62,205 nucleotides of DNA from the sequence record SRR33789315_68; one strand, 5' to 3'. Shown one piece after another: positions 5,395-25,209 of the stretch. The translations under genes and the position numbers were made by a program. The notes below the pieces were generated by a model. That model made no database searches. It worked only from the letters and a program-made list of their open reading frames with translations, and was not told the origin of the DNA. Positions within the stretch are counted from its first letter, which is position 1; each line of letters opens with the position of its first letter.

Positions 5395-5404
5395 CTAAGC
5401 GACA

Positions 5405-6247
5405 TTATTTTTTAATAATTTCTGACTGATAGCTATTTTTAGGATTGAACGTTTTGTATGGCTCAGGAGGCGCTGGCTCATACGTTGGTTCACGTGTGAT
5501 GCGGTAGGAATCATAAGATGTTGGGATACCATCTGGCTGAGGCCCATGATTAATACCTCCCCCTTTCACAATTTCCTCAACCGAGGGCATGTTTAACGTT
5601 TGCTGAACCCAATCTTTTTTATAAGGAGCGCCAAAAAACGGGTTTTTCTTCAGATGCCAAATTTTCCAATTCCCGTCTTCTTTAACAAAATCAATGGCGG
5701 TGCGCCACCAAACCCACATAGCCTGAGGAGCAGGATCATCTTCATGGGTTTTACCTATGGCCATTAATGACACCCATACGCCGCGCGCGGTATTACCATC
5801 ATCGGCAACTTCAATGACAGGAGTACCGATTAATTCACTTTCAAACAATCCCGCATGATTACTGCCAAATTTTATATCGGGGAATAAACGTTTCATGCCT
5901 TTTGCATGAGATTCTTCAAAGTGTTTTTCCACCCCAATAAGGGTTTTACGGGCTCCTTCATAGCCTTCAAATACACCACGACCACCTATTTCAATCGTCA
6001 CACCGGGTGTTTTTTGGGCAATAAATTGCATGCGCGCTTCATACATTGCGGCTTCTTGCATATAAGCCATTTTGCTCACAATATTTTGGACAGTACGGAT
6101 ATCTTTTTCGTGTTGTAGCAATGTTGTCATACGGTCAACTTTTGCTTCTAACACCGTGTAATCTTGCGACGAATTTGACTCGGAAGTACAGGCGGGAAGA
6201 CACACTATTCCAGCTATACAGGCAACGCTTAATAATTGTTTAAACAT
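5405..6247 (-). CDS. SnoaL/NTF2-like domain lipoprotein (paralogue 3)
   Basis: Start MFKQLL with AAGGA RBS; lipobox LPA-C; coiled-coil-like N-region; TPVIEVADDGNTARGVW; WKIWH. Confidence 0.85.
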   Translation of the reverse strand: MFKQLLSVACIAGIVCLPACTSESNSSQDYTVLEAKVDRMTTLLQHEKDIRTVQNIVSKMAYMQEAAMYEARMQFIAQKTPGVTIEIGGRGVFEGYEGARKTLIGVEKHFEESHAKGMKRLFPDIKFGSNHAGLFESELIGTPVIEVADDGNTARGVWVSLMAIGKTHEDDPAPQAMWVWWRTAIDFVKEDGNWKIWHLKKNPFFGAPYKKDWVQQTLNMPSVEEIVKGGGINHGPQPDGIPTSYDSYRITREPTYEPAPPEPYKTFNPKNSYQSEIIKK

Positions 6248-6276
6248 GCATATTGTCCTTTGTAAATATTTCAATG

Positions 6277-8436: not shown

Positions 8437-8899
8437 GTCGTCTTTACCTTTAAAATATTTATACTGAATGGCGTAATTCAATACTCAATTGTCTTACATC
8501 GTTAAACTTTGACGAGTTTATGTAAATTGAACTCCGCAGGCCCGCATTGTGGGTCTGTACATTCAATATGTGGACAAAATAACATTAACATACCAATAAC
8601 TTCAAGTTAAAAAGTTAAATACAAAGATTGCATGCCGTTAATTTAATTAACATTGTCAATTGATATTGAGTGATTAATTTACATTTTGTCGCGCGATGGG
8701 AGCATAGTTTGTAAAGAAACGTATTTTATTTTTAATAAATGGGTCGTGAATTTATCCATTTATTAGTCAGACATAGCGAAGAAATTGGTATTCGATTACG
8801 ACTGAAGCATGGATATGTCAAAGTTGATTTAACAATTTGAAAATAAAGTGAGCATAAATTTGTGACTTAGTGCATTTTAAAAAGCGCATTAAACTGATT

Positions 8900-9188: not shown

Positions 9189-9992
9189 TTAACGCACACA
9201 AGACATTGAGCTATCCCACGTTGCATAAGGCAGTGGCGGCGCTGGATTCAGTGTTTGTTTGGTTGACGTGGTGTACATGTCTCGGCCTGAGCTAGGTCTG
9301 TTGGGTTGTAAGTGTGGTTCTTTGGGAAGTTTGCTTGGCGCCCACATAGTTTCTAATGGTTTGATCCAGGATTGTTCATACGGCGTTAGAAAAATACCGT
9401 AGGTGCACAGCTGCCAGATCTTCCACTCATTTTCTATTTTCTTAAAAGCCGCGGAATATTTAACCCAAATCCACATACCGTAGGGCTCGGCGTTTTTAGG
9501 GTTACCTGATTCAAGCCCTGGCGATAGCCATACCGCTCGAGCTGTTTGCCCGTCTCCTGCAACTTCAATAACAGGACTTGTTAATGTATGTAGATGCATA
9601 TCACCGCGATAATCAGCCCCTCCGGCGTTCACAGCCATTTTATAGTAGTATGTCAAGACTCTTTCTGCGGCATCTGGACCTTCCCATACACCAGTAGACA
9701 TATCGATCTTCATATCTGGGTCGCCATTGGCAAATAGTCCAACATAATCTTTATCCATGTACATATTCGCAAAATGATAAAAAACATATCTGCCCATAAC
9801 ATTTTCTATTGCATTGACGGCGAGGATGCGTTTTTGTTGAAGTTTTATCTCCTTTAGTTCATCGCTTACCGTTGGACTGATTGCCTGGCTCATTGTGCTA
9901 AGCAAAAGGTTCACTGAGACCAATGCACTCACTGCAACTAACCTCAGTTGTTTTTTGACGTTTTGATGCTTGTATCTTTCACTGCTACTCAT
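9189..9992 (-). CDS. Secreted SnoaL/NTF2-like domain protein (paralogue 4)
   Basis: Signal peptide ending SQA; HLHTLTSPVIEVAGDGQTARAVWLSPG; WKIWQ; PPLPYATWD tail. Confidence 0.85.
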   Translation of the reverse strand: MSSSERYKHQNVKKQLRLVAVSALVSVNLLLSTMSQAISPTVSDELKEIKLQQKRILAVNAIENVMGRYVFYHFANMYMDKDYVGLFANGDPDMKIDMSTGVWEGPDAAERVLTYYYKMAVNAGGADYRGDMHLHTLTSPVIEVAGDGQTARAVWLSPGLESGNPKNAEPYGMWIWVKYSAAFKKIENEWKIWQLCTYGIFLTPYEQSWIKPLETMWAPSKLPKEPHLQPNRPSSGRDMYTTSTKQTLNPAPPLPYATWDSSMSCVR

Positions 9993-10275: not shown

Positions 10276-11583
10276 TTAACCGTCCTTATAACAGGGTAAA
10301 ACAGTCCCTTTGACTTCTCCAAATCCTATCCTGACTCGCCCCTTTTGTGCGCAATGCGCCCGCATGATAACCGTGTCGCCATCTTCTAAAAATGTTCGTA
10401 GCTCACCATTCGGCATCGAAATGGCTTTATTACCGCCTTCAGATAACTCAAGTAGTGAACCCGCTTGTTCTGGTGAGGGGCCAGATTGAGTTCCTGTGCC
10501 CAAAATGTCCCCAGGCTGAAGATTGCATCCGTTAATAGTATGATGGGTGACCATTTGTGCCATAGTCCAGTGCGAGTGCTTAAAAGTGCTAGAGCTTAAA
10601 TGGCTTGGTTGGGTCATCTTTGCGGTTTGCAAAAAACAAGATAACTGGATGTCAATTGCACCTCGAAGGCTATTTTTTTCGCTCGTCAAGTAGCTTAAAG
10701 GCTGCTCTCCTTGGGTGTGTAGAAAGGGTACTCGATAAGGTTCGAGCGCTTCTAACGTGACGATCCAAGGTGACAACGTGGTGGCAAAGTTTTTACCTAG
10801 AAATGGGCCTAAGGGCTGGTATTCCCACGCTTGTATATCCCTAGCTGACCAATCATTTAACAAACCTATTCCAAATATGTGTTGTTCCGCCGATTCAATT
10901 GGAATTGATTGCCCTAAGTCATTGCCTGAACCGATGTAAACCGCCAATTCTAATTCGTAATCCATTTTCTGGCTTGGTCCGAGATAGGGAGATGGCTCTC
11001 CATCACTTTTTAGTTGTCCCTTAGGGCGATGAAATTTTTGTCCGGATATTTGAATGGATGATGCTCTGCCATGATAGCCAATTGGGATCCAATGGTAATT
11101 AGGTAAAAGAGGGTTATCAGGACGGAATAAAGCGCCTACTGCTTGAGCATGATACATCGAGGTATAAAAGTCAGTATAGTCTCCAACTTGGCAAGGTAAC
11201 GAAAATTCTGCCTTGGTTTGCGGTAACAGGCAATCAATGACTTGTTGTTCTACCGACGACCCTTTTTTTAGCAATTTAAATAGTGCTAACCTAAGACTTG
11301 ACCAAGCAGCGGCCCCCATGGCCATAAAGTCGTTTAAAGTTGACTGACTGGCCGCACTGAGTATTCGTTGCATCTTAGGTTCAAATAAATTGCATTTGCA
11401 TAAGGCGGCAAGATCGAGTATTTGCTCACCAATGGCCACCCCACCACGAAACGCTTCGTTTGTTCCTTGCAGTCGAAATACACCAAAAGGTAGATTTTGA
11501 AGAGGAAAATCAGAATCGTCATTATTCGCTGAATTAACCCAGCTTTTCGCCTCTGGATCATGGGTCTGATTTAAGCTTGCCAT
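10276..11583 (-). CDS. fahA: Fumarylacetoacetase
   Basis: DFPLQNLPFG, GDYTDFY, PIGYHGRASS, DYELE, NDWSARDIQAWEYQPLGPFLGK. Confidence 0.95.
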   Translation of the reverse strand: MASLNQTHDPEAKSWVNSANNDDSDFPLQNLPFGVFRLQGTNEAFRGGVAIGEQILDLAALCKCNLFEPKMQRILSAASQSTLNDFMAMGAAAWSSLRLALFKLLKKGSSVEQQVIDCLLPQTKAEFSLPCQVGDYTDFYTSMYHAQAVGALFRPDNPLLPNYHWIPIGYHGRASSIQISGQKFHRPKGQLKSDGEPSPYLGPSQKMDYELELAVYIGSGNDLGQSIPIESAEQHIFGIGLLNDWSARDIQAWEYQPLGPFLGKNFATTLSPWIVTLEALEPYRVPFLHTQGEQPLSYLTSEKNSLRGAIDIQLSCFLQTAKMTQPSHLSSSTFKHSHWTMAQMVTHHTINGCNLQPGDILGTGTQSGPSPEQAGSLLELSEGGNKAISMPNGELRTFLEDGDTVIMRAHCAQKGRVRIGFGEVKGTVLPCYKDG

Positions 11584-11595
11584 GTAGTTTCCTTA

Positions 11596-12894
11596 TTATC
11601 CAGAGACTCGAGCTTGGTCTTGTCTGATATATTTAGAAGCCAGGAAAAACAAAATACTGGCTAGAATTCTCACCGATGGAACGCCTATTAGCGCATATTT
11701 TAGCGCATTAACACCATATTCAGGTGTTAGAGCGTCACTCGCCATTCCAACAATAACGGTGACCAGCGCGGTACCAAAAATACTGCTAAGTAGCAAACCA
11801 ATTGCCGATGCCGTCGCGCGAGTCCGAGCTGGAACACAACTCATTTGCGCAGCAAATGCAGGACCCATATTCATCGAGGCGATAAGACTGCCAAAAAACA
11901 ACAACTGTAATGCTTGTTGCGTGTTATCGACATAAAACACCCCTGTCAAAAATGGAATACTAAGTACGGTGGCAAGCCCAGGTATCCACGCCCTCCAACG
12001 TTCATCTCTTCGCGAAAGAATATCGGATAATTTACCTCCGAATAATGTTCCTATCAGTGTGCCTCCGCCAAAAGCCAAGCCAAAAGACTTACCGACTTCT
12101 GCGATATTCAAATCGTGTACACGAATAAAAAATGTAGGTCCCCATTGTGTCAAGCCCATAGTGACAAACAGTTCAACGATTGCCGCTAAAGTCACAAAAC
12201 AATAGGTTGGCGTGTTGAGTAAACTTTTTAACTGCTGCGACAAAGGAATACCCACTTTATTAAGCTTTTTATTATCAAAGCCACCACGCACGGGTTCGCG
12301 AATAGTGAGTAAAGCAAGCAGTGCGCATAATAATCCAGGAGCACCAATTAAAATAAAAGCCAACCGCCAACCGAAATGTTCAGCTACCATTCCGCCAAGT
12401 ACAAAACCAATTATTGTGCCTAACGGAATGCCGGCCATAAAAATAGCCATGGGGAAAGCGCGCTTTTCTTTAGGGAAGTAATCGGCAATAAGTGAATGCC
12501 CGGTAGGTATACAACCAGCTTCACCTATACCAACGCCAATGCGGGTTATAAATAAGTGGGCATAACTCTGTGCCATTCCGGTTAAAGCGGTAAATCCGCT
12601 CCATATTGCTATCACGACAGCGAGTAATTTGGTCCTTGTGCGTCGGTCAGCGAGTTGGGCTAGTACTAAGCCTGCTGAGGCATAAAATAGGGCAAATGCT
12701 ATGCCGGTTAACCAGCCTAATTGGGTGTCGGTTAAGTCATATTCCAACTTTATAGGTTCTAACACGACAGCGAGTAGCATTCTGTCGATTAAATTAATGG
12801 TGTTTACAAAAAATAGAAAAATAATAACATAACGTAAATAGCCGATTGAAAACTCATTTTTCGCCGAATTTATTTCAGACATCAACAACTCCAC
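11596..12894 (-). CDS. MFS transporter (spinster-like)
   Basis: About 12 TM segments; NLIDR, LADRRTR, RIGVGIGEA motifs; true start may be 12882. Confidence 0.9.
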   Translation of the reverse strand: MELLMSEINSAKNEFSIGYLRYVIIFLFFVNTINLIDRMLLAVVLEPIKLEYDLTDTQLGWLTGIAFALFYASAGLVLAQLADRRTRTKLLAVVIAIWSGFTALTGMAQSYAHLFITRIGVGIGEAGCIPTGHSLIADYFPKEKRAFPMAIFMAGIPLGTIIGFVLGGMVAEHFGWRLAFILIGAPGLLCALLALLTIREPVRGGFDNKKLNKVGIPLSQQLKSLLNTPTYCFVTLAAIVELFVTMGLTQWGPTFFIRVHDLNIAEVGKSFGLAFGGGTLIGTLFGGKLSDILSRRDERWRAWIPGLATVLSIPFLTGVFYVDNTQQALQLLFFGSLIASMNMGPAFAAQMSCVPARTRATASAIGLLLSSIFGTALVTVIVGMASDALTPEYGVNALKYALIGVPSVRILASILFFLASKYIRQDQARVSG

Positions 12895-13202
12895 ATGTGT
12901 TTATGCTACAGCATAGTGTTTAACTACGATCAGCAGTACTAAATTTTAAGGCACTTGATTGGAACCAAATCCTATCACCATTTGCCCACATTTCAATACA
13001 TTAGGCTTACATTTTGGTGTTAATTATTTAACAATTTAATTTTTACATTAACCAATACTATTGATTTTTCTAGAGAATTTAATCTTTTATTACGCCAAAA
13101 TTATTTTCAATAGCCAAGAAAATAACTTAACAAATTTAATTCACTTAAACTATTGTTAATTAGGGATTAATTATCTTTTTGTGACAGATATGTTAATTGT
13201 TA

Positions 13203-13230
13203 TTGACAGTAGGAATATCCGAATTACAAT
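13203..13230 (+). promoter_or_regulatory. Sigma70 promoter for the cyclase operon
   Basis: TTGACA-N16-TACAAT, 25 nt upstream of ATG 13256. Confidence 0.6.
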
Positions 13231-13255
13231 ACACTCATCTTACATCGTGAATAAT

Positions 13256-14068
13256 ATGGAGCAAATTTTGATAGTGAAAGAACCGCAAACTGGGCTTGAA
13301 TTTGTTGAGTTGAGCCACGAATGGGGACATCACACTCCCACTTATCCTGGTTACGATGATGTTAAAATATTTCGTTCAGTAACAATCGCTAAAGATGGAG
13401 TGATGAGTCAGCGAGTTAAGATGACCATGCATTCAAGTACCCATATAAATGCACCAATCCATCTAATTCAAGGCGGATTTGGAGTGGGTGAGTTAGCGAT
13501 GGACCACTTCTTTGGCTCTGGTATTGTACTGGATATCAAGAAAAACAAATGGGAATTAGTTACTGCCGACGATTTGTCCTCGTATGGCGGTAAAATAAAT
13601 GAAGGTGATATAGTCATTATAAACACCGGATGGCATGAAAAATACTCGGATAGCATTGAATATTTTGGCTATTCACCAGGGTTGGATGCCTCTGCTGCAG
13701 AGTGGCTTGTAGCTAAAAAAGTGAAGTTGGTTGGTGTTGATACTGCCAATGTCGATCACCCTTTGGCTACCTCGCTTGGTCTTCACCGTAATGGTCCGCT
13801 GATGAGATATATTGCACCAGAATATGATGCGGAAACAGGTAGAAGCGCTAGAGAAGATTTTCCATTGTGGAATGTTGCCCATAAAATATTACTCAAAAAT
13901 GGTATTCCGACAATAGAAAATGTTGGTGGCGATTTAAATACTATGAATGGTAAACGCTGCACTTTTCAAGCTTATCCTTGGCGCTGGAATGAAGGTGATG
14001 CTTGTGTCATTCGCCTCGTCGCTATAACTGATCCTCAGGGAACTTACCGATTAGCTTCGGGCGAATAA
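13256..14068 (+). CDS. Cyclase-family (kynurenine formamidase-like) metal-dependent enzyme with a variant metal motif
   Basis: HSSTHINAPIH (canonical HxGTHxDxPxH); VGVDTANVDHP; IENVGG; start moved downstream of the promoter. Confidence 0.88.
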   Translation: MEQILIVKEPQTGLEFVELSHEWGHHTPTYPGYDDVKIFRSVTIAKDGVMSQRVKMTMHSSTHINAPIHLIQGGFGVGELAMDHFFGSGIVLDIKKNKWELVTADDLSSYGGKINEGDIVIINTGWHEKYSDSIEYFGYSPGLDASAAEWLVAKKVKLVGVDTANVDHPLATSLGLHRNGPLMRYIAPEYDAETGRSAREDFPLWNVAHKILLKNGIPTIENVGGDLNTMNGKRCTFQAYPWRWNEGDACVIRLVAITDPQGTYRLASGE

Positions 14069-14123
14069 CTGTTGTCTTTCCGTCATTGTTCAATCAAACA
14101 GCCTAATTCATTTGGAGTATTCG

Positions 14124-14927
14124 ATGAGCGCTTCTAACAGCACTAAAAATTTACAATTCTATGACCTAACCCACCATTGGGGGCACGGTATGCCTCAGTG
14201 GCCTTCTAGTTTGGGTATCAAAGCAGATCCAACGCAATTTCACGCTAAACACGGTGTTTTCACTATGGAAATTGATGCAATTATGCATCGTGGCACGCAT
14301 ATGGATGCACCAATTCATGTGACTGAAAATACGCCTTATTTAGATGACTATGATGTCTGGCGTTTTTTTGGTACAGGCGTCGCAGTTTCAATCCCTAAAG
14401 GCAAGTGGGGTGTTATCACCGCTGAAGATTTGGAAAATGCAGAACCAAAGATTCAAAAAGGTGACATTGTTATGATCAATACTGGTTCGCATCATAATTG
14501 GGGCGACAACGATGATTATTTCTCATATTCCCCTGGCTTATATAAAGAAGCCGCACAATGGTTAGTTGAAAAAGGGGTTAAGTTGGTCGGTATCGATGTT
14601 CAAGCTTTAGACCATCCTCTGGGTACCAAGCTAATCAAACATGGCCCTGGTCCTTCGCATCCACACTTGATAGATGAATATAAACAAGAGACTGGCCGCG
14701 ACGTAATGGAAGATTTTCCTGATTGGGAACCGGCTCACAAAGAATTAATGGTTAATGGCGGGATCCCAGGTATTGAGAATATCGGGGGAGACCTAGATAA
14801 AGTGACGGGTAAACGTTGCACATTTATGGCGTTTCCATGGAGATGGCCACAAGGTGATGGTTGTGTTGTCAGGGTTATCGCTGTGATTGATCCGGATCAG
14901 ACATTCCGCATCGAAACGGGTAAGTAA
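14124..14927 (+). CDS. Cyclase-family metallohydrolase, candidate dihydrophloroglucinol cyclohydrolase
   Basis: HRGTHMDAPIH; GIDVQALDHP; GIENIGG; paralogue of the upstream gene; adjacent to a PGR-like SDR. Confidence 0.88.
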   Translation: MSASNSTKNLQFYDLTHHWGHGMPQWPSSLGIKADPTQFHAKHGVFTMEIDAIMHRGTHMDAPIHVTENTPYLDDYDVWRFFGTGVAVSIPKGKWGVITAEDLENAEPKIQKGDIVMINTGSHHNWGDNDDYFSYSPGLYKEAAQWLVEKGVKLVGIDVQALDHPLGTKLIKHGPGPSHPHLIDEYKQETGRDVMEDFPDWEPAHKELMVNGGIPGIENIGGDLDKVTGKRCTFMAFPWRWPQGDGCVVRVIAVIDPDQTFRIETGK

Positions 14928-14969
14928 ATACAACTAACTGTTACAAATATTGAATTCATTAGGAAAATT

Positions 14970-15779
14970 ATGATTTCTGAAGCGATGAAAAACCCCGCTG
15001 CATTGTTTGATGTGAAGGGAAAATCTACTCTTATTACAGGTGCTTCTGGCGCGTTTGGTCGTGCGGTTGCCATTTCAATGGGTGCGATGGGAGCTAAGTT
15101 GACCTTAGCGGCCGGCTCGGAAGAAGAACTTGCTGCTGTTGCGCAAGAAGTGAGAGATGTCGGCGGAGAATGTCAAACTGTTAATCTGCGGCCTGATAGT
15201 TTGGCAAATACCCAAGCAATGGTTGACTTTGCGATAGGGAACTATGGCACGTTGGACAATTTAGTGATTGCCTCTGGTTACAATAAAGCTGGCTTTATTC
15301 ATGAGCAACCACTTGAAGAGTGGGAAGCCATCATGGACGCCAACGTGAAAGGTAATTACATGTTAGCCAAGGCTTATGGTCATTATCGCATAACAAATGG
15401 TCTGAAGGGCGGAAAAGTATTGATGGTTTCTTCTGTGCGAGGAAGACACGGCAATATTTCTGGTTACACCGGCTATTGCACCTCAAAAGGCGCAACCGAT
15501 ATGTTGGTTAAAGTTTTGGCGACAGAGTGGGGTAAATACGGCATCAACGTAAATGCCATCGCTCCAACCGTATTCCGTTCTAAATTGACGGCTTGGATGT
15601 ATGAAGAAGGCAACGAATTGGGCGCAGCGACGCGGAAACGTAGTTTGGCGCGTTTACCTTTGGGACGTTTGGGCGAGCCTGAAGATTTTGTTGGTCCATC
15701 TATTTACCTTTTATCGTCTGCTTCTGATTTTGTTACGGGACAGATCCATTATGTAGACGGTGGTTTTACGGCAGGTTAA
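14970..15779 (+). CDS. SDR oxidoreductase, phloroglucinol-reductase-like
   Basis: TGASGAFG; YCTSK catalytic motif; GYNKA, GYTGYCTSKG, KYGINVN..PTVFRS.LT.WM and DFVG match my recollection of clostridial phloroglucinol reductases. Confidence 0.85.
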   Translation: MISEAMKNPAALFDVKGKSTLITGASGAFGRAVAISMGAMGAKLTLAAGSEEELAAVAQEVRDVGGECQTVNLRPDSLANTQAMVDFAIGNYGTLDNLVIASGYNKAGFIHEQPLEEWEAIMDANVKGNYMLAKAYGHYRITNGLKGGKVLMVSSVRGRHGNISGYTGYCTSKGATDMLVKVLATEWGKYGINVNAIAPTVFRSKLTAWMYEEGNELGAATRKRSLARLPLGRLGEPEDFVGPSIYLLSSASDFVTGQIHYVDGGFTAG

Positions 15780-15782
15780 GTT

Positions 15783-16688
15783 ATGAATATTTCTCATATT
15801 GCTGTAATCGGCGCGGGCCTAATGGGTCATGGCATCGCTCAAGTTTTTGCCCGAGCGGGCTTAAAGGTCAATCTTTACGATACGGATGAATCTCGTTTGG
15901 CATCTGTCATACAAAAAGTTGAAGAGATATGCCATTTGTTGGAACAGTCAACCGATTGTGTTAAACACATATCACTTCATCATGACTTAGCTTCTGCCGT
16001 TGCAGGTGTGCAGTTGGTTATTGAAGCGGGTCCTGAAAAATTAGCAATAAAGCAGCAAATTTTTGAAGAGGTTGAAAAGCACGTATCTGAAAATACTTTG
16101 TTGGCAACCAATACGTCTGTCATACCGATAAAGGATATCGGCCAGCACTTGCAATTCAAACAACGTTTAGTTGGAACACATTTCTGGAATCCACCCTACT
16201 TGATACCTTTGGTTGAAGTGGTTCAAGCAGAGGCGACAGATGTTGAGAATGTAAATATTGTCATAACTGTGTTAAATCAGGTTGGCATGTCTCCGGTACA
16301 TTGTAAAAAGGATGTGCCAGGCTTTATTGGAAATCGTTTGCAGCATGCTTTAAAGCGCGAAGCCATTGCACTGGTTGCTAATGGTATATGTGATGCGGAG
16401 GCTGTCGATACTGTGACTAAACAAGGATTTGGAGCTCGATTGGCTGTAGTAGGTCCGCTGGAGCAATCTGACTATTTAGGCTTGGAATTAACCTACAATA
16501 TACACAAAGTACTCATACCTCATCTCGACAATACGGCAACGGTTCATCCCTACTTGGAACAACTTGTTAATGAGGGCAAAACCGGGATGGCGAAAGGACA
16601 AGGTTTCCGAAAGTGGCCATCGGATGCCACCAAAAAACTGAAATCTAAGCTGGACAAATTTATGTTCGAAAGCAGTAAAAAAACGTAG
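15783..16688 (+). CDS. 3-hydroxyacyl-CoA dehydrogenase family protein (candidate 3-hydroxy-5-oxohexanoate dehydrogenase)
   Basis: GAGLMGHGIA; ATNTS; HFWNPPYLIPLVEVV; GFIGNRLQ. Confidence 0.9.
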   Translation: MNISHIAVIGAGLMGHGIAQVFARAGLKVNLYDTDESRLASVIQKVEEICHLLEQSTDCVKHISLHHDLASAVAGVQLVIEAGPEKLAIKQQIFEEVEKHVSENTLLATNTSVIPIKDIGQHLQFKQRLVGTHFWNPPYLIPLVEVVQAEATDVENVNIVITVLNQVGMSPVHCKKDVPGFIGNRLQHALKREAIALVANGICDAEAVDTVTKQGFGARLAVVGPLEQSDYLGLELTYNIHKVLIPHLDNTATVHPYLEQLVNEGKTGMAKGQGFRKWPSDATKKLKSKLDKFMFESSKKT

Positions 16689-16713
16689 TTCAAAGAATAA
16701 TAAATAGGCACTA

Positions 16714-17502
16714 ATGATGAAACAATATCTTGATATACCCTTTTCCGAAACGGAAAAACGCCAGTTGTTATTAGATATATATCTTCCTGACGACATAGCA
16801 AGACCTCAACTTATCATATGGATACATGGCGGTGCGTGGCTAAAAGGGGATAAACAACCAGCATTACCACTAAAATTGCTTGAACATGGTTTTGCATTAG
16901 CTTGTATTACCTATCGATTTAGTCATGAAGCTTTATTTCCTGCACAACTTGTTGACTGTGTTACTGCCCTCAATTTTTTAAAAGAAAAAAGCGGTGAATA
17001 TGGATATTCGTCAGAAAAAGTAGGGCTTATAGGTTCATCTTCAGGTGGTCACCTTGCGGCATTAATGGGCACGACAAGTAATCAAAATATCCCTGAAAAT
17101 TTCATCGCTAAAGCGTTCCAAGTTGATGCCGTGGTCGATATGTTTGGACCTGTTGATTTTTTGTCTATGCTTGGGCAAGGCATGAAGTTTGATGCAGGTT
17201 CGCCCAAATCTCCTGAATCTAGATTACTTGGTGCGCCCATTGAGAGCGTGCCTGATTTAGTTAAATCCGCGAGCCCAATCACTTATATCAGTGAACTTAC
17301 TCCGCCATTTTTGATTATACATGGGACCAATGATTCATGGGTGCCAATTAATCAAAGCGAACTTCTCTATAGCGCTTTGAAAACAGCCAACAAACAAGTT
17401 GAGTTGATCAAAATAGCAGGGGTAAATCATGAAGATAAAATTTTTTATGCAGATGAAAATATAGCTCAAATAGCCGATTTTTTTAAATCGTCACTAGAAT
17501 AA
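16714..17502 (+). CDS. Alpha/beta hydrolase (esterase/lipase, HSL-like)
   Basis: HGGAW oxyanion motif; GSSSGG nucleophile; HGTND..VP; C-terminal His. Confidence 0.88.
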   Translation: MMKQYLDIPFSETEKRQLLLDIYLPDDIARPQLIIWIHGGAWLKGDKQPALPLKLLEHGFALACITYRFSHEALFPAQLVDCVTALNFLKEKSGEYGYSSEKVGLIGSSSGGHLAALMGTTSNQNIPENFIAKAFQVDAVVDMFGPVDFLSMLGQGMKFDAGSPKSPESRLLGAPIESVPDLVKSASPITYISELTPPFLIIHGTNDSWVPINQSELLYSALKTANKQVELIKIAGVNHEDKIFYADENIAQIADFFKSSLE

Positions 17503-17642: not shown

Positions 17643-19967
17643 GTGAAGACAAAATTAACTTATTGTGCCGTATTACTCGCTTTAAACTTTGGTCATGTAT
17701 CTATTACTATGGCGCAAACCACAGCTAATACAGATGATAATGTGGCTGCTAAATCAACTAATGGTTTAGAGGTTATTGAGATTACATCACAACGTCGAGT
17801 AGAGAACGTTCAAAAGGCGGCGTTAGCCATATCAGCTGTGTCTACTGAGCAACTTGCTCGCAGTGGTGTCACACAACCCGACCAGCTATCTCAACTTGTC
17901 CCTGCATTGCAAATAAATAAAACCGGTGGCTCAGGCAATAGCTTTTATATTCGTGGCGTGGGCACACAAGGCACCAATTCGTTCGCTGAAAATGCAGTTG
18001 CCTTTAATATTGATGGAACCTACATAGGTCGTCCTGTCAGTGTTGTTGGCGCTTTTTTTGATTTAGAAAGATTAGAAGTGTTAAAAGGCCCGCAAGGTAC
18101 TCTTTATGGCAGAAATGCCACGGGTGGGGCAATTAATGTTATTACGCAAAAACCGCAGTTGGGTGTAACCGAAGGTTATGTAACCGCGGGGCTTGGCAAT
18201 TATTCGTCAGAATTGCTAAATGGTGCGGTGAATTTGGACGTTAGTGATAATTCTGCACTGCGGATTGCTGGTCAGATTGTACAACATAATGGTTATCTAT
18301 CTGATGGCTATGACGATGAAGATGGCAAAGCCTTAAGAGTACAGTACTATATTGAACCTACCGCAGATACTGATGTGCTTTTGTCAGGTGATTTCTATCA
18401 TGCCGACGGCGTTGGTGCGGGTAGCGTGTTGGTAGCGGAAGGTTCCCCCGACTTAGATAAACGTATCGGAGGTGCTGATCCTATTAGTATTGCAGCTTTA
18501 GAAGCGTCGCAGTCAGCATCATTTTTTTTAAGTCGGCCTGAATTTGTCAGCACTTACCAAAACTTCCAAACCTTTAATTTCTATGCTGCTGATGAAGGGG
18601 TTGATTATCCAGGATATCAAGATAGCGACTATTGGGGGGTATCGGCCACCGTTAATACGCGTTTTGATTCGGGTACATTGACTATTTTACCGTCATATCG
18701 TGCAACCATACTTGATTCAACCTTCTATTTACCTGGCTTCCCGGTGATTAATAAGGAAGACACTAGTCAAACTTCGCTCGAAGTACGCTTTACCTCCAAT
18801 AACGACTCGCCTTTTCGTTATGTCATAGGAGCCTATTACTTTAATGAAGATCAAAAGGCCATGTTGTGGGCTGAGCCCTTCTCATTTGCTGCCATTGCAT
18901 GGGGGCCTGGAGGTCAGGTTGTTCTCTCCGATTTGGGCACGGATAGTAAAGCGATCTTTGGACAACTCACATATGACCTTTCCAATACCTTAAGGGTGAC
19001 AGCGGGGCTGCGACAAACTAAAGAAAATAAGTCCATGTTAGTGCATCAAGCATCTTTAACCCTATCTAACTATGGTCAATTTGACCTAGATCAGTATGAA
19101 GGGACAGTGGAAGTGACTGGGGATCTTGATTTCGACAATGTGTCTTATCGCCTTGGGTTGGAATATGACGTAGCGGCTGAATCTCTGCTGTACGCCAATG
19201 TGACTTCTGGATTTAAGTCGGGTGGTTTTTTTGCTGATACACAAAACAATACATTTAAACCTGAAGAAATTACCGCCTATACCATAGGTAGTAAAAACCG
19301 TTTTTTAGGCAATGAATTGCAGTTAAATGTGGAGGCATTTTATTGGGACTATCAGGATCAACAAATTAGTTATTTAGGCAATCTTCCATCTGGTAATTTT
19401 GGTTCTTTAACCCGCAATGCTGGGCAGGCTACAGTGAAAGGTGTTGAAGTAGATATCCAGTATATGATGGTGGATGATGGTTTGCTTAAAATGAATGTTC
19501 AGTACCTCGATGCCTATTATGACGATTTTGTTTACGATGGCGCAAGCGAAGATAGTACCGTAACCGATTGCGATACATCCATAAGCGAAAATGATGGGAG
19601 CCTTGTTGTAGATTGTTCGGGCAAACCGGCGATAAACAGTCCTGAGTGGACGTTGAACTTAGGTTATGAACATACACTCGAACTTGAGAATGGTATGTAT
19701 TTAATTGCAGCGCTGTGGCATCACTTTGAAACGAGTCGTTATGTGGACATTGGTTATCGGGAGGAACAACAACAAGGGGCAGCAAGTACTACCGATATAG
19801 CCTTAACCTTTGAATACTCTGATCGTTGGTCAATAACTGCTTATGTAAACAATTTAACCGATGAAACCCTCATTTCTTCTGCCATGGCTCGACCCGGTTC
19901 AGGGGCTGTTTATAGCTCATTAAAGGCGCCTCGTACTTATGGGCTAAAAACAACTTACCGTTTTTAG
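17643..19967 (+). CDS. TonB-dependent receptor 3
   Basis: GTG start with GAGG RBS; EVIEITSQRR; LEVLKGPQGTLYGRNATGG; C-terminal YRF. Confidence 0.93.
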   Translation: MKTKLTYCAVLLALNFGHVSITMAQTTANTDDNVAAKSTNGLEVIEITSQRRVENVQKAALAISAVSTEQLARSGVTQPDQLSQLVPALQINKTGGSGNSFYIRGVGTQGTNSFAENAVAFNIDGTYIGRPVSVVGAFFDLERLEVLKGPQGTLYGRNATGGAINVITQKPQLGVTEGYVTAGLGNYSSELLNGAVNLDVSDNSALRIAGQIVQHNGYLSDGYDDEDGKALRVQYYIEPTADTDVLLSGDFYHADGVGAGSVLVAEGSPDLDKRIGGADPISIAALEASQSASFFLSRPEFVSTYQNFQTFNFYAADEGVDYPGYQDSDYWGVSATVNTRFDSGTLTILPSYRATILDSTFYLPGFPVINKEDTSQTSLEVRFTSNNDSPFRYVIGAYYFNEDQKAMLWAEPFSFAAIAWGPGGQVVLSDLGTDSKAIFGQLTYDLSNTLRVTAGLRQTKENKSMLVHQASLTLSNYGQFDLDQYEGTVEVTGDLDFDNVSYRLGLEYDVAAESLLYANVTSGFKSGGFFADTQNNTFKPEEITAYTIGSKNRFLGNELQLNVEAFYWDYQDQQISYLGNLPSGNFGSLTRNAGQATVKGVEVDIQYMMVDDGLLKMNVQYLDAYYDDFVYDGASEDSTVTDCDTSISENDGSLVVDCSGKPAINSPEWTLNLGYEHTLELENGMYLIAALWHHFETSRYVDIGYREEQQQGAASTTDIALTFEYSDRWSITAYVNNLTDETLISSAMARPGSGAVYSSLKAPRTYGLKTTYRF

Positions 19968-20057: not shown

Positions 20058-20396
20058 ATGAAAGTAACCAAATATGTGAACGCAGAAAGTTACGATGCAC
20101 CTAAGCATTCGTCAATGGTGGCCTACCGTTTACAAGGATTGGAAGCCAGTGATTGTCAGTCATTCTCCGTAGGCCATTCTCACTTCTTGCCCGGTGGAGG
20201 TGCTGAGCTTAGTGCCTCAGCTGTCGAGCGTGTATATGTGGTTACCAGTGGAAAAGTAACCGTAACCTCAGGTACTCAAACCGAGTCTCTGGAGGCGCTT
20301 GATAGTTGCTTTATTCCGGTAGGAGAAAAGCGCAAAGTCATTAACGAAAGTCATGAACCTGCTTCAATGTTAGTCATTGTTCAAAGTCAGGCTTAA
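20058..20396 (+). CDS. Cupin domain protein
   Basis: 112 aa; SHFLPGGGAE...ERVYVVTSG...DSCFIPVGEKR..N. Confidence 0.82.
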   Translation: MKVTKYVNAESYDAPKHSSMVAYRLQGLEASDCQSFSVGHSHFLPGGGAELSASAVERVYVVTSGKVTVTSGTQTESLEALDSCFIPVGEKRKVINESHEPASMLVIVQSQA

Positions 20397-20523: not shown

Positions 20524-21432
20524 ATGGAAACTGGATTTGAGTTTTCGATACCAGAAAGAAAAAGCAAGGAAATTAGTCTTGCTGAAGCTGGTAAAATTAT
20601 GGCCAGCAAAAAAAGAGTATCGATTACGGGTTCTCAAGTGCTCAATACGCCGATGGCATTAATTCGGGAATTGATTCGAAGCGGGGCCAATGGCCTAACC
20701 GTTATTCCCTCTATTGATGCTGGTATTTCAGTCGATTTATTGATTGCAGCAGGGGTGATCGATACCCTTTATGTCTCTTATGTTGGGTTTGAAACACAGG
20801 GACTAGCACCCGCATTTAGAACAGCAGCACAGAAAAAAAGCATTAATATCATTGAAGCGGACGAACCCTTTATTGTATTAGGGTGTCGGGCTGCAGCGGG
20901 TGGTATGCCATTTATACCTATTAAAGGGGTATACGAGCCCACGGCATTGGCAGAATTGAATAGCCAATTAAAAAGGGTCATCGATCCCTTTACTGGGGAT
21001 GAAATGTTTGCTATTCCCCCGCTTAAGTCTGATTTATGTATCGTTCATGCTCAAGAGGTGGACCAATATGGTAATGCCCAACTGTGGGGCGGAAATGGAC
21101 AGGAATATGATCGTGTTAGTGCCGCAGACTATGTCATTGTTAGCGCGGAACGGATCATTAGTGTTGACCAAACCCGCAAATATCCAGAGAAAGTAACCTT
21201 GCCAGGACACATGGTGAATGCCGTAGTGCATGCGCCCTATGGTGCCCACCCGACAATTTCTCCATATAACTATATTGAAGACAGAAAGCATCTCGATTTA
21301 TACGTCGATTTAGTTAAAAACGGCCGCCATGAAGAATATCTTGAACGTTTTGTTTACCAAGCAAAAACTCAAGCTGATTATCTAGCACAAGTGGGCTTAC
21401 AGGATATTCTTGCTTTGCAACGTATGGTCTAG
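20524..21432 (+). CDS. Class I CoA-transferase-fold subunit A (GctA/IpdA-like)
   Basis: PMALIRELIR; RAAAGGMPFIP; DPFTG; HAQEVDQYGN; APYGAHP. Confidence 0.88.
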   Translation: METGFEFSIPERKSKEISLAEAGKIMASKKRVSITGSQVLNTPMALIRELIRSGANGLTVIPSIDAGISVDLLIAAGVIDTLYVSYVGFETQGLAPAFRTAAQKKSINIIEADEPFIVLGCRAAAGGMPFIPIKGVYEPTALAELNSQLKRVIDPFTGDEMFAIPPLKSDLCIVHAQEVDQYGNAQLWGGNGQEYDRVSAADYVIVSAERIISVDQTRKYPEKVTLPGHMVNAVVHAPYGAHPTISPYNYIEDRKHLDLYVDLVKNGRHEEYLERFVYQAKTQADYLAQVGLQDILALQRMV

Positions 21433-21474: not shown

Positions 21475-22299
21475 ATGGCCGAATTTGCTAAGCCCGACAC
21501 CGAAAAATACAGCATGGCAGAATTAATGGCCGTGGAAATGTCACGTAATCTTGCTGATGATGATGGTTGCTTAGGAGGGGTTGGCGCTGCGGCTACGATC
21601 CCCATGGCAGCGATAAGGTTAGCAACATTAACCGTCGCGCCTAATATAAATTGGTTTTGCGGCAGCAGCAGCGGAATGAATCCACAATTTAGTGAACTAC
21701 CTTTGACTTCTGCCGATCCAAAAGCCCTAGTCGGCGCAGAAGCCACAAAACGTATGGCTGATATCGTGGATATGGGTATGACGGGGAAGTGGCGGTTTGG
21801 CTTTCATGGCGGCATGCAAATCGACAAGTTTGGCAACAGTAATATGATTGGTATTGGTAAACCTTACGAGCAAATGAAAGTGCGGGGGCCAGGTGCCGTA
21901 GGCACACCATGGGGCGGAAGAATAGAAAAGTCATATTTATTTACTTGGCATCATAACCCTAGGGTTTTTGTGGAAAAGGTCGACTATATATGTTCGCCCG
22001 GATTTTTAAATGGTGGTGAAAGCCGCTGGGAACATATAGATAGAAAATCACTTGGGCCTATCTATATTTATACACCAATCTGCGTATTTGATTTTGATAA
22101 GAGTAGTAAAGCTGTTCGCTTAAAGTCCGTGCATCCAGGCTATACAGTTGAAGACGTTGTAAAAAATACGGGATTCGACATTATTATCCCTGACGCAGTC
22201 CCTCAAACCGTTGCACCACAACCTCACGAATTGTTTTTATTGAGAACAATGGTAGATAAAACCGGAACCCTTAAAAAGGTGCGTTTGACCGTTAACTAA
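21475..22299 (+). CDS. Class I CoA-transferase-fold subunit B (GctB/IpdB-like)
   Basis: GGMQIDKFGNSN; FVEKVDYICSPG; SVHPGYTVEDVVKNTGF. Confidence 0.88.
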   Translation: MAEFAKPDTEKYSMAELMAVEMSRNLADDDGCLGGVGAAATIPMAAIRLATLTVAPNINWFCGSSSGMNPQFSELPLTSADPKALVGAEATKRMADIVDMGMTGKWRFGFHGGMQIDKFGNSNMIGIGKPYEQMKVRGPGAVGTPWGGRIEKSYLFTWHHNPRVFVEKVDYICSPGFLNGGESRWEHIDRKSLGPIYIYTPICVFDFDKSSKAVRLKSVHPGYTVEDVVKNTGFDIIIPDAVPQTVAPQPHELFLLRTMVDKTGTLKKVRLTVN

Positions 22300-22314: not shown

Positions 22315-23853
22315 ATGTATATTGGAGATTTACTTACCCAAACAGCAAGAAATTATCCGGATAAAGTGGGAGTGATTTGGCAAGAAAAACGTATTTCATG
22401 GGCGCAATTAAATACCAAGGTAAATAAGCTGAGTCGTGCATTATTAGCCTTAGGTCTTGCACCAGGCAGCCGTGTCGCTTTTGTTTTGGATAATGGTCCT
22501 GAAATTATTGAATTATATTATGCCATCGCCAAAGCTGGTTTAGTCGCAGCTCCCATAATGCCACGCTCTGTTGGTCGTGAAATTGCCCACATTGTTAATA
22601 ATGTCGAGGCAAAACTAGTGTTTGTCAGTGAACAATTTGAATCTCTGGTGGCTGACGCAAGCACAGAATTCAAACATGCGGTTAAAACCATAGGGATTGG
22701 TAATACGCCTGGATTGCAGTTGGATTATGAAACCCTGATAGCGGCCCAAGTAGGAGAAGAGCCTGTTATAGACATTGCGGCTGATGCGTTATATGCCATT
22801 ATTCATACCAGTGGTACAACGGGTTTCCCCAAAGGTTGTATGTTGAGCCACAGTGCTAAAATTTTCAGTCGTTTGACGGCAGTCGCACAGACCCCTCACT
22901 TAGGTGATGACAAGGGTCTGATCTACATGCCATTAGCCACCAGTTTAGGCGCTGATATGATGCATAACTATGTGATGACCGGTGTTCCATTTGTCTTAAT
23001 GCCTAAGTTTGATGAAATAGGTTTGTTACAATTAGTACAGGACGAAAAAATCACCTTGATCAATGTCATTGAATCTACATTTGACCGATTAGTTGCAAGG
23101 GATGATCTCGATAAATATGATTTAAGCAGTTTGCGCTTTTTTATGGCAACCAGCGCTACACGTGATACTTCGACGGGAATTCAGCGTCTTAATGCCCTTA
23201 AAAACTTTAGCGCTAAATTTTGGAATGGTTATGGTTGCACGGAAGGAGGTGGTTGGTTATCGCATATAGACGGTAATGATTTAAGTTTGGCCGCAGCTAA
23301 TCCTGCGCATAAGCATTTACTCAAATCTATTGGTCGCGAAGCACTGATGTGTCGCGTGGAATGTCTGGATGTAAATGGAAAGGTTTTACCGCCAAATGAA
23401 ATTGGTGAATTGGCATTTTATTCACCCCAGTTATTTGTTGGTTACTGGAACGATCCAGTTAAAACAGAGGAAACTTTGGTTAATGGTGGATTGAGAACGG
23501 GGGACTTGGGGCGTAAAGATAAAGATGGCTACATCTACCTCGAAGGGCGCATGAAAGATATGATTAAATCTGGTGGCATAAATGTTTATCCTGCCGAGAT
23601 TGAAGGGGTACTACGCGACCATCCTGACGTGAAAGAAGTCGCGGTAGTTGGTATACCTGATGCTGAATGGGGTGAAAAAGTTGTGGCCTGTATCGTTGCC
23701 AGAGGACACTGTGATGAACAGTCATTAGTTTCATTATGTGAAAAAGAATTAGCTGGATTTAAACGGCCTAAAACCTTTGTTTTTATGGATAGTTTTCCTA
23801 AAGATGTTGTTGGGAAAGTACTTAAACGTGAAATTCGCGACTGTCTATATTGA
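22315..23853 (+). CDS. Acyl/aryl-CoA ligase (AMP-binding family)
   Basis: HTSGTTGFPKG; GYGCTE; TGDLG; GRMKDMIKSGGINVYPAEIE; GKVLK. Confidence 0.92.
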   Translation: MYIGDLLTQTARNYPDKVGVIWQEKRISWAQLNTKVNKLSRALLALGLAPGSRVAFVLDNGPEIIELYYAIAKAGLVAAPIMPRSVGREIAHIVNNVEAKLVFVSEQFESLVADASTEFKHAVKTIGIGNTPGLQLDYETLIAAQVGEEPVIDIAADALYAIIHTSGTTGFPKGCMLSHSAKIFSRLTAVAQTPHLGDDKGLIYMPLATSLGADMMHNYVMTGVPFVLMPKFDEIGLLQLVQDEKITLINVIESTFDRLVARDDLDKYDLSSLRFFMATSATRDTSTGIQRLNALKNFSAKFWNGYGCTEGGGWLSHIDGNDLSLAAANPAHKHLLKSIGREALMCRVECLDVNGKVLPPNEIGELAFYSPQLFVGYWNDPVKTEETLVNGGLRTGDLGRKDKDGYIYLEGRMKDMIKSGGINVYPAEIEGVLRDHPDVKEVAVVGIPDAEWGEKVVACIVARGHCDEQSLVSLCEKELAGFKRPKTFVFMDSFPKDVVGKVLKREIRDCLY

Positions 23854-24095: not shown

Positions 24096-25209
24096 ATACC
24101 AATTATCAATGATTTGTGATCTAATTGCGCAACGGCTTACTCAATGATTTTTGTCACTTGAAACTTGATACATCACAACATCTATTAACATTGTCCAGAG
24201 CAGAAGCGAACGCACCTAAGCGGCTTCGCTTGTTAGCGTTATCCCATTTTCTTGGGGGTAAAAACCGAACCCAAATTGCCCTTAGCCTTAAAGTCAGTCG
24301 GCGCAGTGTGAATAAGTGGGTAGCCGATTATTTATCAGATGGATTAGCAGGCTTGGAAGCGAAAAAGGCCCCAGGCCGCGCTTGCCCTTTATCAATAAAA
24401 CAGCGAGAGCAATTATTTGACTATATCGACAAGCAAAGTCGCAGTACAAAGGGAGGACGCTTAACAGGTGAAGCGATCAGACTCTATGTGGCTGAGCAAT
24501 TTCAGATACATTATCATCCGACTGCCATATACAAGCTACTCCATTTATTGGGGTTCAGTTGGATAACCAGCCGTTCAAAGCACCCGAAGCAATCTCAGGA
24601 AGCGCAAGACGAATTTAAAAAAACTACAAATTGAAACGATCCAATTGATCCCGGGGCATATCACGTTGGATAAGGTCGATTTTTGGTTTCAAGATGAAGC
24701 CAGAGTCGGCCAGCAAAATACGACAACCCGCTTATGGGCACAAAAGGGCAGTCGTCCTCGCGCGGTCAAACAGCAACAATTTGAGTACGCTTATCTATTT
24801 GGTGCTGTCTGTCCTACTAACGGGCGGACGGAAGCGATTCTAGCCCCTTGGGTTAATAAAGACATGATGAAACAACATCTTGAGTTGATCTCAGCGGCGA
24901 CGGAGGCAGGACGTCACGCGGTGGTGATAATGGATGGTGCGGGCTGGCACACGGATGATATTGCCAAGGACATAGCTAATCTCAGTATTATTAAATTACC
25001 GCCGTATTCACCCGAATTGAATCCGATTGAGCAAGTATGGAGTTGGCTACGTCAACACCACTTGGCAAATCGCTGTTTTAAGTCATATGACGATATACTC
25101 GACGCTTGCACCGCGGCATGGAATGACTTTGTTGCTGACTTGAAACGCGTCACCCAAATGTGCAATAGAGACTGGTTGGACATGAGCAACACTTAAAACG
25201 AAATGGTAT
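24096..25209 (+). mobile_element. IS630-family insertion sequence
   Basis: Short terminal IRs ATACCAATT / AAATGGTAT with TA dinucleotides at the ends; encloses a split transposase. Confidence 0.88.
24125..25196 (+). CDS. IS630 transposase in two ORFs (HTH 24125-24634; DDE 24645-25196) joined at an A7 run
   Basis: HTH region; FQDEAR, MDGAGWH, LPPYSPELNPIEQVW triad; TTTAAAAAAAC at 24614-24624. Confidence 0.9.

Follow-up and report, generated by a model that had tools for sequence, protein, structure and literature searches.

The stretch of DNA analysed here, referred to below as the window, comprises 62,205 nt of sequence record SRR33789315_68, and the locus under study occupies its positions 10,276–17,502 (Table 1). 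Two cyclases, a short-chain reductase (SDR), a HACD-family dehydrogenase and an esterase are encoded there as an operon, which is transcribed divergently from genes for an MFS transporter and a fumarylacetoacetase (FAH); genes, order and strands agree with the preliminary description, and Pfam and NCBIfam profile searches upheld every gene family of the locus. The promoter-like site between the two divergent units resembles the sigma-70 type (TTGACA-16-TACAAT, with 11 of 12 consensus matches). Because orthologue alignments of the first cyclase, CYC1, open near residue 19–34 and this site falls within the called reading frame, the protein probably starts at the ATG at 13256 rather than at the GTG at 13181. 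Farther downstream on the same strand lie a TonB-dependent receptor, a small cupin in which the usual His ligands are not conserved, two CoA-transferase subunits scoring under the cut-off of the NCBIfam 3-oxoacid CoA-transferase model, and an acyl-CoA ligase. The host had been described as apparently aerobic and of marine type, and so it looks from O2-dependent enzymes encoded in the window and from the nearest relatives, which are Alteromonadaceae.

Table 1. Features of the divergent locus and of the adjoining downstream block (positions in the 62,205-nt window).
Feature	Coordinates (strand)	Profile match	Remark
Long-form FAH	10276..11583 (-)	TIGR01266, 536.6 bits (cut-off 375.3)	Candidate 3,5-dioxo acid hydrolase
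MFS transporter	11596..12894 (-)	PF07690, 173 bits	Same strand as FAH, 12 bp upstream of it
Divergent intergenic region	12895..13255		AT-rich; promoter-like site 13203-13230 (+)
Cyclase CYC1	13256..14068 (+)	PF04199, 125.9 bits	Asn variant HSSTHINAPIH; ORF call starts at 13181
Cyclase CYC2	14112..14927 (+)	PF04199, 118.4 bits	Canonical motif HRGTHMDAPIH
PGR-like short-chain reductase (SDR)	14970..15779 (+)	PF13561, PF00106	
HACD-family dehydrogenase	15783..16688 (+)	PF02737, PF00725	TfD-like
BD-FAE family esterase	16714..17502 (+)	PF20434, 216.7 bits	Accessory gene specific to the window
TonB-dependent receptor	17643..19967 (+)		Plug and beta-barrel domains
Small cupin	20058..20396 (+)		112 aa; conserved extra gene of type A and type B clusters
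CoA-transferase subunit	20524..21432 (+)	PF01144	
CoA-transferase subunit	21475..22299 (+)	PF01144	
AMP-forming acyl-CoA ligase	22315..23853 (+)	PF00501, PF13193	
Transposase, split over two ORFs	24125..25196 (+)	HTH PF13592/PF13565, DDE_3 PF13358	Right edge of block

The SDR is of the classical type, with the dinucleotide motif TGASGAFG and catalytic residues Y169 and K173 inside the segment GYTGYCTSKG. All four motifs previously noted as reminiscent of clostridial phloroglucinol reductases (PGRs), GYNKA, GYTGYCTSKG, PTVFRS.LT.WM and DFVG, are present in the translation. The top PDB match of the protein is 5g4k, at 194.2 bits, followed by an entry at 133.8 bits, i.e., with a margin of about 60 bits; the PDB titles of 5g4k and 5g4l name a phloroglucinol reductase from Clostridium sp. 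In the alignment with 5g4k the last three motifs are identical, while GYNKA stands opposite GFNK. Structural Z-scores fail to tell SDRs apart. The assignment of the protein as PGR-like is supported, its closest solved relative being a phloroglucinol reductase.

The two cyclases differ in the metal motif. The DPGC motif HxGTHxDxPxH is present in CYC2, whereas CYC1 has Asn at the position of the ligand Asp, a residue that we take to be a metal ligand, as in the structures of kynurenine formamidase and isatin hydrolase. The difference is conserved: HxxTHxNxPxH was found in 62 of 68 CYC1 orthologue matches and HxxTHxDxPxH in 65 of 74 CYC2 orthologue matches, the remaining 6 and 9, respectively, showing no motif match. 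Judging from the motif, CYC2 is likely the DPGC-like catalytic ring hydrolase, and the pair might form a heteromer. In CsDPGC, the substrate-pocket residues are Trp20 and Tyr22. The top PDB match of the HACD-family dehydrogenase is 4om8 (185 bits), a family member that takes no CoA substrate. Activity on the free acid instead of the CoA ester is what characterises a TfD, with loss of the CoA-binding Lys and Asn as the corresponding sequence mark.

Phloroglucinol is the shared intermediate in the breakdown of flavonoids, tannins and phlorotannins, and the known route that opens its ring works without oxygen. In the PGR-DPGC-TfD-TAL cluster of Clostridium scatologenes presented by Zhou et al. 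2023 (mBio, PMC10470551), members of these three enzyme families reduce the ring, open it by hydrolysis and oxidise the product to a 3,5-dioxo acid. Genes scored there as DPGC and TfD homologues are orthologues of the window cyclase and HACD genes, in keeping with the roles proposed for them earlier; the tabulated identities of the window-gene orthologues to the clostridial enzymes are 39–42.5% for PGR, 31–36% for DPGC and 38.5–41% for TfD. Unlike the clostridial cluster, that of the window contains no TAL (a BKACE enzyme), has a second cyclase gene and, in one of the two products, Asn for the ligand Asp, includes an additional cupin, and comes from a Gram-negative aerobe that has TonB receptors. 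It should be noted that the pathway is stated by Zhou et al. for marine alpha- and gammaproteobacteria, and that their cblaster supplement lists orthologous clusters, those of Alteromonas portus, Oceanobacter, Rhodoplanes roseus and Marinovum algicola appearing as PGR/DPGC/TfD hits without TAL. Thus, the occurrence of the pathway in these marine bacteria is already known, and what is new is the idea that an FAH provides its last step. Steps past ring opening do differ between lineages: in the aldolase-dependent pathway reported for Collinsella sp. zg1085 (Li et al. 2024, as cited in a review), an aldolase converts 3-hydroxy-5-oxohexanoate to acetone and malonate semialdehyde. No gene for such an aldolase was identified in the window.

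The reported absence of BKACE, hmgA and maiA from the window held in both profile and translated searches. None of the corresponding Pfam families, including BKACE family PF05853, was matched by the 44 ORFs of at least 150 aa or by the 112-aa cupin, and tblastn of the window with six BKACE proteins (two type B TALs among them), one hmgA and one maiA product returned no match. The 62-kb window thus offers neither hmgA nor maiA as a homogentisate-pathway context for its FAH; hmgA, a TAL or a second FAH may lie elsewhere in the genome.

For comparison, 80 proteobacterial loci were fetched, and the core of two cyclases, SDR and HACD was named type A. The SDR is present in all 80 loci, HACD in 76, CYC2 in 75 and CYC1 in 74; the cupin occurs in 39. 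No orthologue of the MFS transporter, the esterase or the CoA-transferase subunits was found in these loci. The canonical lyase TAL (NF053538) is also present in 23 of 30 type-A genomes, compared with 4 of 121 in a sample of the family, so TAL could act in trans. The TAL equivalog is absent from the other seven type-A genomes, and in six of these an FAH-superfamily gene adjoins the cluster.

In three Alteromonadaceae (Paraglaciecola chathamensis, A. portus and Alteromonas sp.; loci L108–L110), TAL resides in a separate cluster, termed type B, with the gene order CYC-HACD-BKACE-cupin-SDR-SSF. Type B resembles the window cluster in its enzyme families and in the same small cupin, which adjoins the BKACE gene in these loci, and its borders carry genes for a TonB receptor and a transporter. 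It differs in having one cyclase, with Asp in all three checked for the motif (L034, L059 and L066), and in its BKACE, an equivalog of 3,5-dioxohexanoate:acetyl-CoA transferase (546.7 bits; cut-off 430). The type B SDR is 50% identical to that of the window in L108 and 37–38% in L109 and L110, and a type B SDR paralogue lies nearer to 5g4k (212 bits) than does the window SDR (194). The two types share genomes and stand side by side in three loci. Type A is therefore a paralogous cluster, usually found alongside the canonical TAL-bearing one, and may for this reason act on something other than phloroglucinol itself. Moreover, clusters of type B gene order (e.g., that of Paraglaciecola mesophila) outscore type A against C. 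scatologenes for all three enzymes in the cblaster table of PMC10470551, so that phloroglucinol itself could be what type B acts on.

The FAH of the window is orthodox in sequence. It matches mouse FAH (1qco) over its full length at 413 bits; its metal ligands are those of the mouse enzyme (1qco/1hyo), as are the His-Glu dyad and the oxyanion residues. Of the catalytic or binding positions examined, all 14 are kept, among them Arg142 and Tyr128, which we take to bind the fumaryl carboxylate. Thus, no sequence mark of a new substrate is seen in the window FAH. Arg142 and Tyr128 are likewise kept in the island FAHs described below, and are lost in two FAH paralogues located elsewhere and not linked to hmgA. 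In the phylogenetic tree, the window FAH falls together with the hmgA-linked enzyme of P. chathamensis (61% identity; three-row clade, SH-aLRT 96), outside the clade of Alteromonadaceae island FAHs.

It is the neighbourhood that sets the window FAH apart from the usual FAH context, since its partner gene encodes an MFS transporter and a ring-opening operon lies opposite, with the first cyclase gene only 1.6 kb away. Of the 80 loci, a single one has a long FAH no farther than 10 kb away, and most alphaproteobacterial FAHs are hmgA-linked; in one alphaproteobacterial locus (L047, of the unpublished genome G022), an FAH not linked to hmgA is found 8 kb from the cluster. In all six Alteromonadaceae and Halieaceae genomes, by comparison, a long FAH occurs 11.5–12.8 kb from the type-A SDR, within an island block of HACD2, short FAA-hydrolase, IclR, FAH and SSF, and hmgA is absent from four of the six. 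The Halieaceae FAH occupies the same slot and belongs to a different FAH clade; the six islands have a common architecture and could stem from one or two transfers. The earlier proposal that FahA completes the pathway thus has genuine though limited comparative support in these six islands, four of them without hmgA, and is contradicted by the orthodox window FAH and by the single locus with a long FAH within 10 kb. That FAHs act on 3,5-dioxo acids at all is in line with the broad activity on 3,5-diketo acids reported in PMC3196145, and such hydrolysis by the window enzyme is plausible, if somewhat short of probable.

We tentatively favour, at a little less than an even chance, the reading that the plus-strand operon is a type A paralogue of the reductive phloroglucinol pathway with the divergent FAH as its last step. 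A TonB receptor and the MFS transporter would import the substrate, which the esterase may free from esters; the flavonoid A-rings or brown-algal phlorotannin units named earlier would be candidate sources. The PGR-like SDR would reduce phloroglucinol, or a substituted derivative of it, to the dihydro compound, and the cyclase-family pair, with the full metal motif in CYC2 and Asn for the ligand Asp in CYC1, would open the ring hydrolytically. The HACD-family enzyme would then oxidise the resulting 3-hydroxy-5-oxo acid, and FAH, there being no BKACE lyase in the cluster, would hydrolyse the 3,5-dioxo product to acetoacetate and a small acid, acetate or another; activation of the acetoacetate may fall to the CoA-transferase pair.

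Somewhat unlikely, yet deserving serious consideration, is that the ring is opened as proposed and FAH stands outside the route, as an ordinary homogentisate/tyrosine enzyme or part of another aromatic route of the island, with a TAL-type BKACE encoded elsewhere performing the cleavage. The orthodoxy of the window FAH (536 bits for TIGR01266, 14 of 14 sites), its grouping with hmgA-linked FAH, the TAL equivalog elsewhere in 23 of 30 type-A genomes and the 79 of 80 loci without a long FAH inside 10 kb all fit this view, as does A. portus, whose hmgA is on another contig and whose single FAH is the island copy. Retention of the island FAH without any hmgA in four of six gammaproteobacterial relatives, the 7 of 30 type-A genomes without TAL and the short distance from the divergent window FAH to the first cyclase argue against it. 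We consider it less probable still that the type A substrate is a phloroglucinol with substituents, e.g., 2,4,6-trihydroxybenzoate freed by the esterase from flavonol depsides, yielding a dicarboxylic 3,5-dioxo acid that TAL refuses and FAH splits into acetoacetate and a dicarboxylate fragment. Such a division of labour would suit the coexistence of both cluster types in the same genomes, the greater distance of type A from the C. scatologenes enzymes, and the pattern of retention and loss of Arg142 and Tyr128; the esterase gene does lie within the window operon, but it is missing from all 80 related loci, and the SDR catalytic segment GYTGYCTSKG is identical to that of clostridial PGR.

Two further readings are improbable. 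The cluster could serve a cyclic dione or phenol of an unrelated kind and resemble the phloroglucinol pathway at the family level only, as might be read from the generic, below-cut-off names that NCBIfam models yield; against this, three consecutive enzyme families fit the published pathway and the SDR is specifically closest to PGR. Least probable, in our opinion, is a CoA-dependent route, in which the downstream CoA-transferase or ligase activates the hydroxy-oxo acid, the CoA ester is oxidised and a thiolase cleaves the product. A CoA-dependent scheme was reportedly proposed for Pelobacter acidigallici by Brune and Schink in 1992, and the CoA-transferase subunits and acyl-CoA ligase do lie 3–6 kb downstream on the same strand; however, Pfam searches found no thiolase in the window, none of the 80 related loci has the transferase and ligase genes, and the closest solved relative of the HACD enzyme, 4om8, uses no CoA substrate.

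A broader form of the FAH reading, which we regard as unlikely though worth stating, is that in aerobic Proteobacteria hydrolysis by the FAH superfamily, through long FAH or the conserved short FAA-hydrolase, replaces or supplements the thioester-conserving lyase, and that type A with its Asp/Asn pair is a second ring-opening system, directed at substituted phloroglucinols that yield dioxo acids which only these hydrolases would cleave. The Asp/Asn cyclase pair and the cupin without a metal site are, in any case, concrete and testable features of a pathway described only in 2023. The existence of two paralogous cluster types, often sharing one genome, implies that PGR hits in surveys may mean two different substrates. 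If aerobes do finish the route by FAH-type hydrolysis, annotation schemes based on PGR, DPGC, TfD and TAL would undercount polyphenol-degrading marine bacteria.

The positions and families that the preliminary description had assigned to the seven genes were borne out by Pfam and NCBIfam profile matches (see the table). The window also proved to lack BKACE (β-keto acid cleavage enzyme), hmgA and maiA, as proposed there: no BKACE, HgmA or GST-type isomerase family was found among its 44 ORFs of at least 150 aa and the 112-aa cupin, and tblastn of the window with six BKACE proteins, one hmgA and one maiA as queries gave no match. ATG 13256, just downstream of a promoter-like site (11 of 12 matches), is probably the start of the first cyclase; a search of intergenic repeats for an operator gave no clear candidate. 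The description of the host as aerobic and marine-type is reasonable, given the O2-dependent enzymes of the window (an FAD monooxygenase, an extradiol-type dioxygenase, and a vanillate demethylase-like oxygenase with its reductase), its seven TonB-dependent receptors, and the closest relatives of the SDR, which belong to Paraglaciecola, Aliiglaciecola and Alteromonas. The vanillate demethylase-like oxygenase gene is broken by an in-frame TAG between its Rieske and VanA_C parts and may be a pseudogene or reflect a sequencing error. Secreted SnoaL_4 (NTF2-like) proteins repeatedly adjoin TonB-dependent receptors (922-8481, 9189-9992 and 43087-47311), which looks like a repeated uptake module. 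The catabolic block is bordered by a transposase.

Features of the window
Feature	Position	Strand	Remarks
SnoaL_4 gene	922-1698
SnoaL_4 gene	1734-2591
TonB-dependent receptor	2877-5087
SnoaL_4 gene	5405-6274
TonB-dependent receptor	6277-8481
SnoaL_4 gene	9189-9992
Long-form fumarylacetoacetase (FAH)	10276-11583	-	TIGR01266, 536.6 bits (cut-off 375.3)
MFS transporter	11596-12894	-	12 bp upstream of FAH
Promoter-like site	13203-13230
Cyclase CYC1	13181-14068	+	PF04199; ORF call
Cyclase CYC2	14112-14927	+	PF04199
SDR	14970-15779	+
HACD-family dehydrogenase	15783-16688	+
BD-FAE esterase	16714-17502	+
Transposase	24125-25196		two adjacent ORFs (HTH domains, then DDE_3); right end of catabolic block
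SnoaL_4 gene	43087-44172
SnoaL_4 gene	44224-45081
TonB-dependent receptor	45092-47311
FAH-superfamily gene	55095-56075	-	FAA_hydro_N_2 + FAA_hydrolase
Vanillate demethylase-like oxygenase	58989-60062	-	VanA_C part 58989-59663, TAG 59664-59666, Rieske part 59667-60062

Kinship to the characterised phloroglucinol reductase (PGR), dihydrophloroglucinol cyclohydrolase (DPGC) and triacetate-forming dehydrogenase (TfD) was gauged by PDB bit scores together with a published cblaster table. The PGR-like nature of the SDR is confirmed: its best solved relative is 5g4k/5g4l, entries titled "Phloroglucinol reductase from Clostridium sp.", at 194 bits versus 134 for the next entry. Three of the four sequence motifs on which this assignment had been based are identical in the alignment with 5g4k, whereas GYNKA is aligned with GFNK. 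Relatives of the SDR were collected in a one-genome-per-species scan, from which the best 80 of 237 loci, some of them cut by contig ends, were retained. In these 80 loci the SDR (80) is accompanied by HACD (76), CYC2 (75) and CYC1 (74), and in 39 by a small cupin. None of the 80 carries counterparts of the MFS transporter, esterase, CoA-transferase or ligase genes found in the window. In the first ORF clustering of these loci, high-GC genomes contributed long antisense ORFs that partly distorted it, and it serves only to name neighbouring families.

That aerobic marine Proteobacteria have a reductive phloroglucinol-type pathway has been published before and is not new. Zhou et al. 2023 place the phloroglucinol cluster in "marine alpha- and gamma-proteobacteria" (PMC10470551), and their cblaster supplement lists Alteromonas portus, Oceanobacter sp., Rhodoplanes roseus and Marinovum algicola as PGR/DPGC/TfD matches without the BKACE lyase TAL. 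The clusters listed there are 39-42.5% (PGR), 31-36% (DPGC) and 38.5-41% (TfD) identical to the clostridial enzymes, and these four are among the loci fetched here that carry the CYC1-CYC2-SDR-HACD core of the window, hereafter type A. Type A is rare, turning up in one of 121 genomes of the family and in at least one of 401 of the class (6 candidates per genome scored), in both samples in the centre genome alone.

Type A is a paralogue of the canonical cluster. In P. chathamensis, A. portus and Alteromonas sp., type A is accompanied by a second cluster on another contig, in which a TonB receptor faces CYC-HACD-BKACE-cupin-SDR-SSF (type B); in three alphaproteobacterial loci the two types are adjacent. 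The type B BKACE is the equivalog of 3,5-dioxohexanoate:acetyl-CoA transferase, i.e., TAL (NF053538, 546.7 bits, cut-off 430). The type B SDR of P. chathamensis scores 212 bits against 5g4k and is 50% identical to the SDR of the window; those of A. portus and Alteromonas sp. are 37-38% identical to it. In the cblaster table of PMC10470551, clusters whose genes follow the type B order, e.g., that of Paraglaciecola mesophila, outscore type A against all three C. scatologenes enzymes. The catalytic segment GYTGYCTSKG, on the other hand, is exactly shared by type A and the clostridial PGR, whereas type B differs. Of 30 type-A genomes, 23 contain the TAL equivalog, as against only 4 of the 121 sampled in the P. 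chathamensis family; type A is therefore usually an extra beside the canonical pathway.

The two type A cyclases differ at one motif position. The family motif HxxTHxDxPxH is intact in CYC2 and in 65 of its 74 orthologue hits. In CYC1 the Asp is replaced by Asn, a change shared by 62 of its 68 hits; none of the other hits in either set matched the pattern. The single type B cyclases have Asp in all three cases examined. This Asp is a metal ligand in the structures of kynurenine formamidase and isatin hydrolase, and cyclases of this family are homodimeric. We infer that the catalytic and variant subunits of type A would form a heteromer. The small cupin was considered as an O2-dependent, diketone-cleaving substitute for TAL and ruled out, since it occurs with both cluster types, adjoining BKACE in type B, and no His ligands are conserved across 14 aligned cupin sequences.

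The preliminary description had proposed that FAH completes the reductive route to acetoacetate and acetate. This is chemically sound: PMC3196145 describes FAH as broadly active on 2,4- and 3,5-diketo acids. Of the 80 loci, just one has a long FAH within 10 kb. In six gammaproteobacterial genomes (two of Aliiglaciecola, two of Alteromonas, that of P. chathamensis and a Halieaceae chromosome), a genome search located a long FAH just beyond the flanks fetched for these loci, at a distance of 11.5-12.8 kb from the SDR of type A. All six share an island block of HACD2, short FAA-hydrolase, IclR, FAH and SSF, adjoining a TonB receptor, a second PGR-like SDR and the type A operon. A search for hmgA found none in four of the six, so FAH there cannot serve homogentisate breakdown; one of these four, the culturable Aliiglaciecola sp. 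G003, lacks TAL as well; P. chathamensis has, in addition, a separate hmgA-fahA-GST operon. The Halieaceae FAH occupies the same slot yet belongs to another FAH clade, hinting that selection favours an FAH at this position. The single architecture of the six islands may reflect one or two transfer events. Among alphaproteobacteria, an FAH unlinked to hmgA lies 8 kb from the cluster in locus L047 (unpublished genome G022), next to UbiD-type decarboxylase, TctC and Fe-ADH genes, and in locus L106 an FAH that adjoins a type B cluster is itself split by DDE_3 transposase genes. Nine of the 13 alphaproteobacterial FAH stretches fetched (L094-L106, from 12 genomes) are linked to hmgA.

The FAH of the window is itself of orthodox sequence. 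In the database it comes closest, at 60-65% identity, to ordinary gammaproteobacterial fumarylacetoacetases; in the tree it falls outside the island clade of Alteromonadaceae and shares a group (SH-aLRT 96) with the Halieaceae FAH and with that FAH of P. chathamensis which is linked to hmgA. All 14 positions checked are kept, including Arg142 and Tyr128, which we take to hold the fumaryl carboxylate and which the island FAHs also keep. Judged from these residues, either an unchanged tyrosine-pathway enzyme or one whose substrate bears a second carboxylate would fit, and they do not point to a dedicated triacetate hydrolase. Two alphaproteobacterial long-form paralogues unlinked to hmgA (L097 of genome G024 and L100 of G030, beside GST, metallo-beta-lactamase, Ldh_2, MAPEG and Rieske genes) no longer have Tyr128 and Arg142 (Ser/Gly and Leu/Ser), suggesting an altered distal substrate pocket.

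Shorter members of the FAH superfamily recur as well. In 12 of the 80 loci (L087-L092, from genomes G001-G006, and L009, L010, L013, L031, L032 and L041), type A is joined by a trio without a cyclase of its own: a second PGR-like SDR, 42-47% identical to that of the window, another HACD (about 33%) and a short, roughly 330-aa FAA-hydrolase, which lies just outside the fetched flank in six. In two genomes, both metagenome-assembled and possibly incomplete, neither BKACE nor long FAH was detected, and the short FAA-hydrolase is the sole FAH-family candidate. Of the seven type-A genomes without TAL, six have an FAH-superfamily gene beside the cluster. The window holds a second FAH-superfamily gene of its own, whose product matched no NCBIfam model; in L009 and L010 an orthologue of this gene (45-46% identity) is located 8.6 kb away from the SDR of type A.

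Thus, the proposed FAH step has chemistry and moderate comparative support on its side, but neither the FAH sequence nor most related loci demand it; that FAH performs the last cleavage in the pathway of the window is, in our opinion, a tentative assignment, slightly more doubtful than probable. Among the papers searched, none was found that ties FAH to the breakdown of phloroglucinol or triacetate, and none mentions the PDB codes 5G4K or 5G4L. The recurrence of FAH-superfamily hydrolases beside type A is new. Also new is the recognition that type A is a separate paralogue, marked by an Asp/Asn pair of cyclases and usually coexisting with a TAL-bearing canonical cluster. This coexistence speaks for a difference in substrate between the two clusters, or for type A relying on a borrowed TAL.
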